Source: a virus (lineage: Duplodnaviria; Caudoviricetes). Taken from it: 34,094 nucleotides of DNA. The translations under genes and the position numbers were made by a program. The notes beneath the pieces are model-generated. The model was not told the origin of the DNA. It saw only the letters and a list, made by a program, of their open reading frames with translations, and made no database searches. The stretch is from positions 1 through 34,094 of IMG/VR virus record IMGVR_UViG_3300020045_000534; one strand, given 5' to 3'. This document shows, piece after piece, positions 20,195-28,500 of the stretch (its first letter is position 1; every line of letters starts with the position of its first letter).

Positions 20195-20710
20195 CTAGCT
20201 AGCCAGCGAGTAGTTCCAGTTAGTGCGGCCGTTGGGCAGCGTTGCGTTGGTCAGTCGAGCATTGTCCGTAGCGCCAACCACGTCCTGAGGCTGGTCCGTC
20301 TTGACATCGACCATCTTGATCTTGTCGCCAACCGCGTACACAACGTCAGACGCCTTGCCAACTCGCAGAACGGCGAGGTAGTTGCAGTCCGCAAACATGA
20401 GGCGCTGGAGTGCACCATCGAAGATTCCAGCAGCCGTACGGTCCTTGTCCCGAAGGATTGACAGAGTCACGGTCGGGTTGAGGAAGGTCGGGGTCTGCGT
20501 ACCAGCGAGGGTGCAGAACGTCAGGCCATCGTCAGTGTCAGGGTCACCCAGCGTAAACTCGGTGTCGTCCTCCCACAGCGCGCAAGTGATGTTGAACGAA
20601 AGCGCGGCGTTGTTCAGCTCGGCAGTTGTAGGTGCCGCAAAGTTCGCGATAGCCTCGGGCTCGTACAGGTCCACGCGTACACCCAGCCGGTACAAACGGT
20701 CGTTAGCGAT
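20195..20710 (-). CDS. Major tail protein paralogue (start ATC at 20710 or TTG at 20695)
   Basis: APTTAELN motif shared with the downstream gene; the SD GAAGGGG is spaced for ATC. Confidence 0.75.
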   Translation of the reverse strand: MANDRLYRLGVRVDLYEPEAIANFAAPTTAELNNAALSFNITCALWEDDTEFTLGDPDTDDGLTFCTLAGTQTPTFLNPTVTLSILRDKDRTAAGIFDGALQRLMFADCNYLAVLRVGKASDVVYAVGDKIKMVDVKTDQPQDVVGATDNARLTNATLPNGRTNWNYSLAS

Positions 20711-20765
20711 AAGTCATCACCCCTTCAAGATGGGCGAGTGCCTTAGTCGCCGTGGAAAAGTTCAT
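20703..20765 (-). CDS. Putative leaderless 20-aa uORF (MNFSTATKALAHLEGVMTYR)
   Basis: ATG is exactly 6 nt after TGGTAAGAT (20772-20780); the ORF overlaps the tail gene start. Confidence 0.4.
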   Translation of the reverse strand: MNFSTATKALAHLEGVMTYR

Positions 20766-20793: not shown

Positions 20794-21462
20794 TTACACC
20801 AATTTGTGCGGCGCGTAAAGGTTTAGAATATGTTCTGCCCACGCAATTTTATCCTCAACCCGCTGGCCAGCTGGCTGGTAAGTATTCCAAAGCTCCAGAT
20901 TTTCTAAACGGTTATCAGCGCGGTCGCCATTAATGTGATGAACATTCTCAGAGCGTTCTAATTTACGGCCTAAGTGTTCCTCCATAACCCAGCGGTGGTG
21001 AAGCTTTCCAACTCTCTTGCCTCGACTCGGGTCGAAGTACATCACATATTTGTAGCCGTCAATTGCTGGCTTCCCAACCACGATAGCCTTGGATACTCTA
21101 TCTGTATAGCCGGGCTGAGACATCCTGTTTTCGTGGTAGTGCTTAGTGCACCAATCTTTTCTGGTGATTATCCCCAAGCAATCTGGATTCAGGCAAGTCT
21201 GACCTGCCTTTGATTTTTTCGGCCTCTTAGCGTATTCAGCCTTACCGCGAGAACTTTTTGCAAGCTTGCATGGCTCACAGCGGCATCCTCTATTGGTGTA
21301 ACCCGTCTCGGTCCCGTGCCAATATGCGCCCTTCGCCACAGATGATCGGTCCTTTAGCCTATCCCGGTAAGCAAGGTACGCTTGCTTGCAGCTTTCACAC
21401 CGGCATTTGTGCTTGTTATAGCCACTAGTTGTGCCATGATTCCATCCCGCTTTTCTTCCCAT
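20794..21462 (-). CDS. Free-standing HNH endonuclease with N-terminal Cys/His repeats (222 aa)
   Basis: HRWVMEEHLGRKL...ENVHHINGDRADNRLENLEL; two HGTxxGY...CRCxxC repeats; leaderless ATG 6 nt after TGTTATTCT. Confidence 0.9.
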   Translation of the reverse strand: MGRKAGWNHGTTSGYNKHKCRCESCKQAYLAYRDRLKDRSSVAKGAYWHGTETGYTNRGCRCEPCKLAKSSRGKAEYAKRPKKSKAGQTCLNPDCLGIITRKDWCTKHYHENRMSQPGYTDRVSKAIVVGKPAIDGYKYVMYFDPSRGKRVGKLHHRWVMEEHLGRKLERSENVHHINGDRADNRLENLELWNTYQPAGQRVEDKIAWAEHILNLYAPHKLV

Positions 21463-21486
21463 ATAAATAGAATAACACAGGGGAAC

Positions 21487-21524
21487 AACAAAACCCCCGC
21501 AGATTAAAATATCCACGGGGGCTT
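21487..21524 (-). terminator. Intrinsic terminator
   Basis: GCCCCCGTGGAT/ATCTGCGGGGGT stem followed by a T-rich tail on the - strand. Confidence 0.8.
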
Positions 21525-21550
21525 GGTTAGAGCTGAATGCTTGAGTATTG

Positions 21551-21961
21551 CTACTTGGCATCCTTAGCGGTCTTAGTGTCGTCAGAAGCAACGGCAAAAT
21601 TGGTGTCAGTATCGATGGGCTTAGCCGCAAGCTCTGCGATCTTGGCGTCCTCAGCATCCTTGGCCTCAGCCGCGTCCTTGGCAGCCTTCTCCTGATCAGC
21701 AGCAGCCTGCTTCGCAGCAGCCTCGGCGTCAGCAGCAGCCTTCTCGTCAGCCTTCTCTTCGGAGGCGCGGCGCGCAGCCTTCTCCTCAGCCCAAGCGATG
21801 TACTCGGACTTAGACATGGCCTTGTACTTAGTCGGGGAGAATGACTTGGTATCTTCGGCAACCTCAACCAGATTGTCATAGACATCGAGGTAGTTGCGAG
21901 GGTTCTTAGCCACCTGTCCGTTGACAAGGTTCAACGTGGTGATGAGGTCGGTTTCAGCCAT
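21551..21961 (-). CDS. Hypothetical protein with an Ala/Glu/Lys-rich helical tail
   Basis: Own promoter (TGCTAGAAT, 6 nt to ATG) and own terminator. Confidence 0.75.
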   Translation of the reverse strand: MAETDLITTLNLVNGQVAKNPRNYLDVYDNLVEVAEDTKSFSPTKYKAMSKSEYIAWAEEKAARRASEEKADEKAAADAEAAAKQAAADQEKAAKDAAEAKDAEDAKIAELAAKPIDTDTNFAVASDDTKTAKDAK

Positions 21962-22915: not shown

Positions 22916-23358
22916 TAGTTCACCTCAGGCGCGCTCATGTCAGAAGTCGCCATGACAGTTCGCGTCCACATGCCAGAGCTGTTGATGCCGTTCTGGATGA
23001 CGTACTGGAAGCCCTCAAGCGTCGGGTCTTCTCCACCATCGACAACGATAATCTGCTGGCCCTTCCGGATGGAACCCTGCCCGGCCGGATCATAAGGAAG
23101 CTGGAATTCCACCGTACGAATGTTCTTTTCCTGGTAGCCAGCATCTGAATCGCGGTCACCCTTGAGCGGCTGGATGCGAGCCTTACCTTCCCACACAACC
23201 TCAGGCTCATCGCCGGTGACGGAGTTGTCAAAGCGGTTGAAGTCCCCGGAGTTTTGCTCGGGCTCAACGATCTTGATATACCCGGTCATCCAGAATTCAA
23301 TAGCCGGGCGCATTCTCTCCGCCATCGCTGTGACATCTACACTAATCTGAATTACCAC
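22915..23358 (-). CDS. Head-to-tail stopper (DUF6093-like)
   Basis: VVWEGKARIQP and FQLP motifs; synteny. Confidence 0.7.
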   Translation of the reverse strand: MVIQISVDVTAMAERMRPAIEFWMTGYIKIVEPEQNSGDFNRFDNSVTGDEPEVVWEGKARIQPLKGDRDSDAGYQEKNIRTVEFQLPYDPAGQGSIRKGQQIIVVDGGEDPTLEGFQYVIQNGINSSGMWTRTVMATSDMSAPEVN

Positions 23359-23780
23359 AGGTAGGGCCTCGGTGTTCCCTCAGGCCAAATCGGGTGCGAC
23401 CAGTCCGCAAAGCCAGTCGGCCCGATAAGGAACTCATCCTCACCACCAGCCAGCGCATCCTCTTCACGCCATCGGGCCGCAAGCTTCAGGAAGAAGTCAG
23501 CACTCTTGGATGGGGAAACCTGTAGGTCATCCTGCCGGTAATCGGGGGTCATGGCGAAAGTCGCGGCGAGGCTCTCGTACAGCGCGGCCCCAGCAAGCCG
23601 GATACTGCCACCCGCAAGGCTAAGCAGCGCAAGCGCGCTCGCGTCACTGACGTACAGATAGTCGCCAAGAATCGGGTCCGCCGTGGCGGTCGGAGAGTCG
23701 TCCGAGATGAGGACGCGCAGCAGCTGAAGATCAGTCGGTGGGTCACTGATCACGAAAGGATACACCCCGGGATTCGCCAT
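23352..23780 (-). CDS. Head-to-tail adaptor
   Basis: LRVLISD...YVSD...IRLAGAALYESLA pattern; leaderless ATG 6 nt after TGGTAGACT. Confidence 0.75.
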   Translation of the reverse strand: MANPGVYPFVISDPPTDLQLLRVLISDDSPTATADPILGDYLYVSDASALALLSLAGGSIRLAGAALYESLAATFAMTPDYRQDDLQVSPSKSADFFLKLAARWREEDALAGGEDEFLIGPTGFADWSHPIWPEGTPRPYLW

Positions 23781-23799
23781 TACTCCAGTCTACCAGCTA

Positions 23800-23871
23800 A
23801 ACCAAAACCCCCGGCCGGAGCGCAAGCTCAACAGCCGGGGGCGGTCGCCATTTAGAGGAGGTTTAGGCAAC
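23800..23871 (-). ncRNA. Candidate small RNA with an anti-SD loop and intrinsic terminator
   Basis: Promoter TGGTAAGCT at 23877-23885; hairpin GTTGCC-[TAAACCTCCTCTAAAT]-GGCGAC; terminator CCCCCGGC...GCCGGGGG TTTT; no ORF. Confidence 0.55.
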
Positions 23872-23891
23872 AATTAAGCTTACCATATTTG

Positions 23892-24437
23892 CTAAGAAAC
23901 CGGCAGAAGCTCCAGCGTGCAAGCCAATGTCGTTGCAGTGTGCCCACTAAGGCCAGCGCCCCACTGCCAAGAGGCATCGATGACTGTATCAAGCGTTGTG
24001 TTCACGGTTGTCGAGATTGAATTGAGGGGTGCAGATGAGCGCTGGAAGTTCAGCCCCGTAACATAGTCCACCGACCCTGCAATCACCACAGTCCCGGCAG
24101 GTCCAGCCGTGAGGCAAGTAATCGTCTGCGCAAGTCGGAAGTTGGCGTTGTTCAGGTTGCCTAGGAGCCCGGAGGTTACACCGCTAGTCACGGTGGTGCC
24201 GTTGAATTTCACCCGCACCGTGCCCGTGCCTACCCCGAGGGTTGGTGTAGTAGTCATCCCACTGATGATGAGACGCGCGACCCTGCCCGGGACAAGCCAG
24301 TTTGCGGGGATGAGCTTGGTGCCAACACCAGAAGACAAGATGCTGGTCTCAGTGGTGGTGTTAACCGTTGCCACACTGCTGTTCGAGTATGCCGTCCTGA
24401 AGGTGCTGTAAGCCGGGTCAGGGAACAGCTCGGACAT
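23892..24437 (-). CDS. Hypothetical beta-rich, probably virion-associated protein
   Basis: T/G/S-rich; TAATG-coupled to the upstream gene. Confidence 0.65.
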   Translation of the reverse strand: MSELFPDPAYSTFRTAYSNSSVATVNTTTETSILSSGVGTKLIPANWLVPGRVARLIISGMTTTPTLGVGTGTVRVKFNGTTVTSGVTSGLLGNLNNANFRLAQTITCLTAGPAGTVVIAGSVDYVTGLNFQRSSAPLNSISTTVNTTLDTVIDASWQWGAGLSGHTATTLACTLELLPVS

Positions 24438-27876: not shown

Positions 27877-28500
27877 TTATCGCTTGAGATATGCAATAGC
27901 TGACTTCATCTTTTCTAAATCGTCTCCAAACCAGCCAAGACCCAAGTTGCATTGTTTGCAAAGAATTCCCCTGACGCAATCGCCACAAGTTCTCTTCCGG
28001 CCGCTAATCTTTCTGTCGCAGCAGGCATGGTCGTGATCTACATGCAACTCGGTGGTTTTCCCGCAAACCTGACATCCTGTGTCAAATAAAACCTGAAGCT
28101 GGACTGAAGTCAATTTATAACACTCAGATACCCCCTTGTGGCTCCTACACATCTTCGATGAATTGTCACTATTTCCGGCACAACCGGAAATCGAACAAGG
28201 GTATTCTGCAAGAAGTCTTGGTCTCTTGGGCGAGCTGGATATTCCAGTCTTGCTTCTTGAATGACCGTAATGCAAGGCGCAATATTCAAGCTTTTGCCGG
28301 TCTTTTGCGCACCCGGGAACTATGCAGGAGCCCGAAACTGCATTCCACTTTCTCAGCGGCCTAAGCTCAATTTTGTAGACATTTTTCTGTTTCCAGTGAG
28401 AACTACAAAGCCCTCCAGACCTGGAATCCCTACCACAGTCATCAAAACTGCACTCTGGGACATGTTCCCTAGGTTTTGGTCCACTTTTCTTATTTGCCAT
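27877..28500 (-). CDS. Endonuclease VII-family (HNH-like) free-standing nuclease
   Basis: CQVCG...LHVDHDH...VRGILCKQCNLGLG, preceded by three Cx4C...CxxH repeats. Confidence 0.85.
   Translation of the reverse strand: MANKKSGPKPREHVPECSFDDCGRDSRSGGLCSSHWKQKNVYKIELRPLRKWNAVSGSCIVPGCAKDRQKLEYCALHYGHSRSKTGISSSPKRPRLLAEYPCSISGCAGNSDNSSKMCRSHKGVSECYKLTSVQLQVLFDTGCQVCGKTTELHVDHDHACCDRKISGRKRTCGDCVRGILCKQCNLGLGWFGDDLEKMKSAIAYLKR

Follow-up and report, generated by a model that had tools for sequence, protein, structure and literature searches.

A conserved predicted small RNA gene with an exposed anti-Shine-Dalgarno loop in actinophages, and its possible part in an early-to-late switch

In lytic phages, the timing of gene expression is attributed chiefly to transcription. 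Anti-Shine-Dalgarno (anti-SD) motifs of the CUCCUCCC type stand ahead of the terminator in SuhB/MmgR (RF00519), anti-hemB (RF02837), sX13 (RF02232) and the Betaproteobacteria toxic small RNAs (sRNAs; RF02278), for the last of which a model of ribosome-binding site (RBS) masking exists. The function of the toxic sRNAs is given as unknown in PMC6321483 and PMC4603805. Cuckoo RNAs (RSs0680, with CcsR and alpha-r14) are chromosomal in Alphaproteobacteria and have two to four hairpins, each with CCUCCUCCC; RBS occlusion has been proposed for them (PMC4615179). The 6C RNA (6C/B11, RF01066) is a host gene of the Hfq-less Actinobacteria, in which its C-rich loops, with no chaperone involved, bind the G-rich RBSs of multiple targets and repress them (PMC6486639). 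The 23S-methyl motif of Lactobacillales (RF01065) consists of two hairpins, the second being a terminator (PMC1950547, PMC7724050); the initial proposal was that of a cis element (PMC1950547), and enterococci were subsequently found to contain it as a discrete RNA (PMC7724050). Phages themselves encode RNAs that alter translation by pairing near an RBS, among them P1/P7 C4, lambda OOP, aQ and PreS, which have one or a few specific targets and belong mostly to temperate coliphages (PMC12197685).

The window, that is, the whole stretch of 34,094 nt analysed here (IMG/VR record IMGVR_UViG_3300020045_000534), was a fragment, about 56% complete, of a lytic-type siphovirus whose minus strand carries the virion genes and whose plus strand carries the primase and small early genes. 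Identities of 24-60% linked the portal, terminase and capsid proteins of this virus to counterparts in Microbacterium ED/GB, Arthrobacter AQ, Clavibacter CN1A/CMP1 and a handful of other phages. A sequence-only reading had placed a complete minus-strand sRNA unit between two structural genes, and its promoter, stem arms, 16-nt loop, terminator and U run were all located where it had put them, in a gap (between genes 23892-24437 and 23352-23780) free of open reading frames. The features are as follows.

23892..24437, minus strand: gene upstream, without a known family; the sRNA terminator likely ends its mRNA as well
23885-23877, minus strand: TG-extended -10 promoter without a -35, TGGTAAGCT, of the type found at late-gene promoters
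23800..23871, minus strand: predicted sRNA of ~68-72 nt (fold z = -3.77)
23866..23871, minus strand: 5' arm of hairpin 1 (fold and own-arm pairing test)
23850..23865, minus strand: 16-nt loop, predicted fully unpaired in the discrete RNA, with the ACCUCCU anti-SD core at 23862-23856
23844..23849, minus strand: 3' arm of hairpin 1 (fold and own-arm pairing test)
23807..23842, minus strand: GC-rich hairpin 2, the intrinsic terminator; its lower stem covaries
23817..23832, minus strand: bulged helix within the terminator (G-C pair, UU bulge at 23831-23830, GAG/CUC), conserved among relatives
23799..23807, minus strand: U-rich tail with a modest U run (23807-23804)
23787..23795, minus strand: separate extended -10 promoter of the leaderless downstream gene (a downstream -10 in 31/33 homologs)
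23352..23780, minus strand: downstream gene, phrog_18316, in the syntenic head-tail connector block, with a leaderless start

The 72-nt unit was predicted to fold into a 6-bp stem with the 16-nt loop, followed by an 11+4-bp terminator hairpin (-36.8 kcal/mol, z = -3.77; equalled by 1 of 200 shuffles), and the 4-nt loop of hairpin 2 had no anti-SD motif. The plus strand of the unit folded at -29.5 kcal/mol. Since the 16S tail of Microbacterium, the host type, is ATCACCTCCTTTCT, the ACCUCCU of the loop equals the anti-SD core, as the sequence-only reading had stated. The transcription start proposed near G23871 needs a slight correction: a start there leaves a spacer of 5 nt after the hexamer compared with 6-7 nt at the leaderless genes of the window, so +1 may be 23871 or 23870. 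The sRNA promoter was unlisted by a generic sigma-70 scan because it lacks a -35. A descriptor combining promoter, unpaired CCUCC stem-loop and terminator had a single match in the window, exactly at 23871, and one match in eight dinucleotide-Markov copies of the window; it also recovered the units of CN1A and WaterT and missed that of Hortus1. The covariance model R1 gave the window sRNA, a member of its training set, 45.4 bits.

TG-extended -10 elements without a -35 stood on the minus strand before nearly every late block of the window (7465, 8490, 18012, 19288, 20780, 21976, 23795, 25249, 27864, 30068 and 32165), which suggests a phage late activator.

A nucleotide search of the sRNA region against phages returned short chance matches only, and the exact 14-mer of the loop occurred at 120 IMG/VR loci with no homolog by eye. 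Single-protein searches found no close relatives of the window phage, so relatives were taken from portal, terminase and capsid matches. In 19 named relatives picked by protein similarity, the gaps before the head-tail adaptor block and before terS were inspected. Promoter, exposed CCUCC and terminator were present, by eye in printed gaps and folds, in 14 of the 19, so that the unit proposed from one sequence held as a conserved prediction: before the adaptor block in CN1A, Jojan60, Pan2, Hortus1, Jacko, Wolfstar, Roman, Fork, ISF9, Amigo and Molivia, and before terS in WaterT, Cassita and Yappy. The sRNA was doubtful in three of the 19 (CMP1, Satis and MT835568) and not detected by eye in two (Nonagon and MinS1). 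Among 30 protein-selected IMG/VR loci, a good number of which did not reach across the gap, it preceded the adaptor gene in at least 11 and terS in three. Cultured carriers belonged to Microbacterium ED/GB, Arthrobacter AQ and Clavibacter CN1A, and were joined by about 30 uncultured phages. Three layouts were seen: two hairpins, as in the window; a single long hairpin whose tip carries the anti-SD loop (ED); and a longer form in which UUCCUCC makes up the terminator loop (AQ). The recorded hosts of Jojan60 (L123), MinS1 (L137) and Pan2 (L139) are Stenotrophomonas or cyanobacterial, their proteins are related to those of these actinophages, and Jojan60 and Pan2 have the actinophages' promoter type; the three host labels may be wrong.

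A pattern built from the anti-SD loop and the bulged helix and run on 56 of the 64 parts of IMG/VR gave 81 distinct matches, 36 of which had a hairpin-2 stem of at least 6 bp. A -10 and hairpin 1, neither demanded by the pattern, were both present in 29/36 of these structured matches vs 1/45 of the others, and a -10 at the expected spacing in 30/36 vs 2/45. Most structured matches came from uncultured phages with a related capsid protein.

In an alignment of 33 sequences, hairpin 1 paired over at least 5 bp with its own arm in 32, compared with 38% of 1048 cross-pairings. In hairpin 2, 8 of 12 pairs were changed on both sides, 98.7% of cells paired, and the covariation score was reached by 0/500 shuffles; this covariation is inflated because 23 of the 33 rows came from the pattern search filtered for that very stem. 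CCUCC was predicted open in all 33 discrete RNAs, with loop variants CCUCCU, CCUCCC and CCCUCCC. Stems were thus rewritten around a kept CCUCC loop, the pattern that the sequence-only reading had named as a check. Flanking genes varied (capsid, ribonucleotide reductase or glutaredoxin upstream; adaptor, fibre or terS downstream), which, together with a separate downstream -10 in 31/33, argues that the sRNA is an independent unit; with promoter, hairpin 1 and terminator added, the features are those of a free-standing sRNA gene. The gene is very probably real and conserved across distant actinophages.

The family was not found in host genomes by two partial searches. The pattern, run on 30 of the 64 parts of the species genomes, gave 117 distinct matches, six with a stem of at least 6 bp and none of these six with a -10. 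R1, with 80 candidates scored in each genome, had no match among the 61 M. paraoxydans family genomes searched. Nonagon, TeddyBear, Dismas and G024 were blank with R1, and G025 and G026 gave sub-threshold matches. R1 misses the ED-type and AQ-type forms, so these blanks are no proof of absence, and the phages used below as controls may be imperfect ones.

An Rfam search, among the checks named in the sequence-only reading, was run and gave no match at gathering score, either in the window or for the sRNA of three relatives, and none at E up to 10 over 23700-23950; the sRNA is therefore catalogued in none of the families tested. It resembles the cuckoo RNAs as a short hairpin RNA in which the stems vary freely around an unchanging anti-SD loop (PMC4615179). 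It differs in being phage-encoded, in having usually one anti-SD loop with varying flanks, and in its terminator with a conserved bulge; where every cuckoo loop carries CCUCCUCCC, the window loop has ACCUCCUCU and the hairpin-2 loop no motif. The cuckoo model had no gathering-score match in the window and none at E up to 10 in 23700-23950. The 6C RNA offers a model from the same host phylum, with C-rich loops, Hfq-independent pairing and multi-target repression, but its loops are C runs rather than CCUCC and it is a host gene (PMC6486639); the RF01066 model (47-bit cut-off) had no match in the window or at the sRNA of CN1A, Hortus1, Jojan60 and G004, at a sensitivity limited by control genomes that also fell below the cut-off. 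No member of the sRNA family matched the SuhB/MmgR, anti-hemB or toxic sRNA models above cut-off, and those families, with sX13, are proteobacterial and chromosomal, unlike the phage sRNA. C4, OOP, aQ and PreS share with it phage origin and, as predicted for the sRNA, pairing near an RBS. The sRNA probably works like the C-rich anti-SD sRNAs, is a member of no tested family, and represents an uncatalogued phage sRNA family.

In the open-access literature, no description of an actinophage anti-SD sRNA, or of an actinophage RNA switching translation by 16S-tail mimicry, was found, in line with what the sequence-only reading had supposed. The strings 'actino', 'mycobact' and 'streptomyces' do not occur in the text of the phage RNA review (PMC12197685), nor do 'small RNA', 'promoter', 'leaderless' and 'terminator' in that of a Microbacterium phage paper, whose ED section is silent on an sRNA (PMC7302621). 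The motif and three contig ids were absent from six supplementary files of a catalogue of viral structured RNAs (PMC10690425); its files 1, 2 and 4 may list the family as an unnamed candidate. The prophage-initiated M. tuberculosis RNA ncRv12659 was set aside as dissimilar, the text of its source having no C-rich or SD wording (PMC3861185).

A second conserved part of the family, seen in protein-selected relatives and overlooked in the sequence-only reading, lay close to the tip of the terminator and was composed of a G-C pair, a pyrimidine bulge of 2-3 bases and GAG/CUC. It was found by eye in L152, L153, L154, L166, L169, CN1A and WaterT, all selected by protein. The first bulge U and GAG/CUC were invariant in 33/33 aligned rows, partly by construction of the search pattern; the base pair above varied and was a standard pair in 25/33. 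In the arginine-sandwich motif of TAR and 7SK, the bulge U forms a triple with an A-U pair one step past the bulge (PMC6189040). The phage helix fits the pattern of that motif, a resemblance confined to secondary structure. As a speculation from this analogy, the helix might be a protein site or might protect the 3' end.

The bulged G-NN-GAG/CUC-C helix is also in the consensus of the 23S-methyl motif, and the phage sRNA shares with that motif a two-hairpin build and a terminator hairpin bearing the helix. The best of five relatives against RF01065, the only one to score, was homolog L243 (24.4 bits, model positions 58-96), compared with 72-86 bits for true members, and the window had no match at the 50-bit cut-off. 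Hairpin 1 of the 23S-methyl motif is long and without a CCUCC loop in two instances inspected, unlike that of the phage sRNA. The motif lies upstream of SpoU-family methyltransferase genes in Firmicutes, presumably TrmL-like, whereas the neighbours of the phage sRNA are actinophage virion genes. In Streptococcus/Limosilactobacillus the 23S-methyl motif had its own promoter and terminator (L416:1501-1596, L417), and may be an independent sRNA instead of a leader.

Several other loci resembled the family. Unrelated phages had CU-rich loops and the same bulged terminator (L201, L214, L225 and L262, after a terminase gene; L174, L178, L242 and L276); R1, which includes none of them, scored these eight at 25-45 bits, and they may form a separate branch or widen the family. 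In Sphingobium (L306:2487-2571, L362:2487-2551) and in L574, look-alikes on the chromosome had CCUCCCU and a bulged terminator. Look-alikes found with the pattern in the two Sphingobium genomes and in unrelated phages scored 20-28 bits against the SuhB/MmgR, anti-hemB, sX13 and toxic sRNA families, all below cut-offs, those of Sphingobium being below-threshold SuhB/MmgR matches. A second anti-SD layout, with an extended -10, then ACCUCCUUCC at the extreme 5' end of the transcript, then a terminator, was seen in Jojan60 (L123:3805-3880) and at L162:4636-4715; in Hortus1 (L122:2625-2660) a 5'-end layout of the ACCUCCUUCC type had tRNAs in place of the terminator. Hortus1 also had, at L122:14300-14385, a second ED-type hairpin with a promoter and without an anti-SD loop.

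The sequence-only reading had held that late mRNAs are immune to the sRNA as leaderless, and the leaderless starts of portal, protease, adaptor and terS were indeed present in the window. Leaderless starts stood at the head of operons, namely at terS, portal, endonuclease VII, protease, adaptor and HNH, and amounted to only 6 of the 22 late genes of the window, and to 17/106 late vs 3/176 early genes over four RNA-bearing phages; the claim of immunity is overstated on these counts. Capsid, major tail/tail tube, chaperone and tape-measure genes had SD-like leaders, so late synthesis is not simply immune. In Nonagon, where the RNA was not detected, 7/21 late genes were leaderless. For this census, early and late genes followed the deposited annotations of CN1A, Hortus1 and WaterT and our own starts for the window, and some starts of the window and CN1A were corrected or dropped.

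GGAGG or AGGAG preceded 84/173 early vs 21/89 non-leaderless late genes in the four RNA-bearing phages (p = 1e-4), and 50/132 early vs 29/60 late genes in three control phages (p = 0.21), which when pooled had neither an SD nor a leaderless difference between early and late. The eight best loop matches were all early genes in CN1A and Hortus1 and 7/8 early in WaterT. In larger scans, with gene starts from simple automatic calls, 116/144 top-eight matches lay on the early strand of 18 RNA-bearing phages (71.7 expected). The proposed early-to-late switch thus kept its support from the best loop matches, mostly early-strand genes, and lost the overstated immunity of leaderless late mRNAs. In an annotation-free run, 3/5 phages in which no RNA was detected likewise had the early-strand GGAGG excess; strong early SDs are therefore not confined to carriers of the RNA. 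SDs of the GAAAGG type, whose pairing partner is the 3'-most part of the 16S tail and whose fit to a CCUCC loop is poor, were commoner on the virion strand in 11/18 RNA-bearing phages, and also in TeddyBear (compare the late genes of L124).

Loops matched the start regions of their own phage better than did foreign loops, again on automatic gene starts (8.8% vs 6.0% at 7 nt or more, 0/20000 permutations; 3.6% vs 2.2% at 8 nt or more, p = 0.0003). The effect held with one phage per clade and without the strongest case (p = 0.0004 and 0.023), and was absent in coding-interior controls (p = 0.09-0.45); it was small, and was lost at 9 nt or more (p = 0.23). No clear per-phage dialect was found in the trinucleotide before GAGG. 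The loop of G022 matched a 10-nt stretch ahead of an early gene and that of G014 several AGAGGAGG sites. The window loop ranked an unremarkable 12 of 24 phages, and its longest perfect matches (9 and 8 nt) preceded the virion-strand metallophosphoesterase (7424) and tail chaperone (19242) genes; with few early genes on a contig about 56% complete, the own-start test is weak for the window.

The kept unpaired CCUCC among freely varying stems points to pairing with SD sites, by which the loop probably works. The reading preferred here, for which belief and doubt are about in balance, is that the sRNA is a late-made, trans-acting RNA masking strong SD sites ahead of early and replication genes of the phage that encodes it. 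A late-type promoter would yield the ~70-nt RNA, its late timing being deduced from promoter type only; the open CCUCC loop would then pair with strong SD sites of many of the phage's early and replication mRNAs and damp their translation as virion synthesis begins. Late genes would escape in part through leaderless operon heads, weaker or shifted SDs and translational coupling, and some host mRNAs might also be struck. A broader version is tentative and on the whole doubtful: that a large group of lytic actinophages (ED/GB, AQ and uncultured) share a 16S-tail-mimic early-to-late switch acting on co-evolving early phage and host SDs, with late operons built to escape it and a TAR-like bulge recruiting a protein, and that a similar module is independent in proteobacterial phages and the terminator helix is shared with the 23S-methyl motif.

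A global host shut-off, in which an abundant RNA would mask host SDs and free ribosomes for leaderless and coupled late phage mRNAs, would account for the near-exact copies of the host 16S tail in several loops (ACCUCCUUU) and for the leaderless enrichment in late genes, and it has parallels in overexpressed 6C, which arrests mycobacterial growth via its C-rich loops (PMC6486639), and in the toxicity of the betaproteobacterial 'toxic small RNAs' in E. coli (PMC4603805). It is nonetheless unlikely, for most late genes, capsid and tail included, are SD-led, and loop flanks follow the start regions of their own phage, which a purely host-directed RNA would not need. If the loop and flanks read one phage gene, such as primase/polymerase, a nuclease or a neighbour, and the broad SD match is incidental, the sRNA would be a single-target regulator: the primase/polymerase start was in the top five matches of WaterT, G004, G019, G021 and G022, RuvC-like or SSB-like genes recurred, and the best match in WaterT was the adjacent terS start. 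Yet no single ortholog was a common target, the top match differing from phage to phage though primase/polymerase recurred, and perfect matches rarely exceeded 8-10 nt while many early genes matched equally well, which makes one dedicated target distinctly unlikely. A MazF that cleaves the anti-SD exists in mycobacteria. A 16S-tail mimic could be a decoy soaking up such a nuclease, or a ribosome factor, with the bulge binding an arginine-rich protein; the invariant U-bulge and GAG/CUC fit the arginine-sandwich pattern (PMC6189040), and ED phages encode an RNA ligase and a polynucleotide kinase thought to counter RNA-cleaving defences (PMC7302621). The loop variants CCUCCU, CCUCCC and CCCUCCC suit pairing with GGAGG/GGGAG better than a fixed protein site, the own-start match is unexpected for a decoy, and such a role appears very unlikely.

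Two readings would deny the unit a trans-acting role of its own. It could be a cis element: a fold that closes the upstream mRNA at its 3' end, or else an attenuator of the adaptor gene whose loop pairs with GGAG by the start codon in read-through RNA. No obvious terminator lay between the upstream gene and the sRNA unit, and in the window the read-through fold buried the loop by pairing with 23797-23783; this burial was seen in just 1/33 homologs, CCUCC stayed open in 28/33 read-through folds, and the attenuator fold was rejected. The gene in question is leaderless, with only 2 nt between GGAG and start codon; given also the changing neighbours and a promoter that belongs to the unit itself, a cis role is highly improbable. 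That the unit is no more than a terminator with a fortuitous stem, or the RBS of a small plus-strand gene read in antisense, is scarcely plausible. Terminators are common in such gaps, and some start codon followed the antisense GGAGG in 18/33 homologs; promoter, hairpin 1 and loop are, however, conserved together, the window has no start codon after the antisense GGAGG, and the homologs' codons vary in position and frame length. A small antisense plus-strand frame was accordingly rejected, there being none in the window and no consistent start among homologs.

Were the masking of early SD sites by the sRNA borne out, a 16S-tail-mimic RNA that switches translation would be an additional layer of control in lytic phages. 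Family ties to the cultured phages Fork and Roman (host M. foliorum NRRL B-24224) make the early-to-late idea directly testable. The sRNA offers a compact, chaperone-free scaffold for SD masking in Actinobacteria, and it draws attention to an unexplained bulged terminator helix common to an old orphan Rfam motif.

Some gene starts and insertions in the virion operons merit record. Four deposited late-gene starts looked misplaced (L121:13936 in CN1A; L122:16702, L122:6575 and L122:18543 in Hortus1), each with an in-frame ATG 6-7 nt past a -10 that implies a leaderless start. In the window, genes for an HNH protein (20794-21961, minus strand) and endonuclease VII (27877-28500, minus strand), both leaderless, were inserted in the virion operon. 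A leaderless 20-codon frame at 20703-20765 (minus strand), possibly truncated or frameshifted, stood in place of the ~72-codon gene that precedes the first tail-tube gene in relatives.
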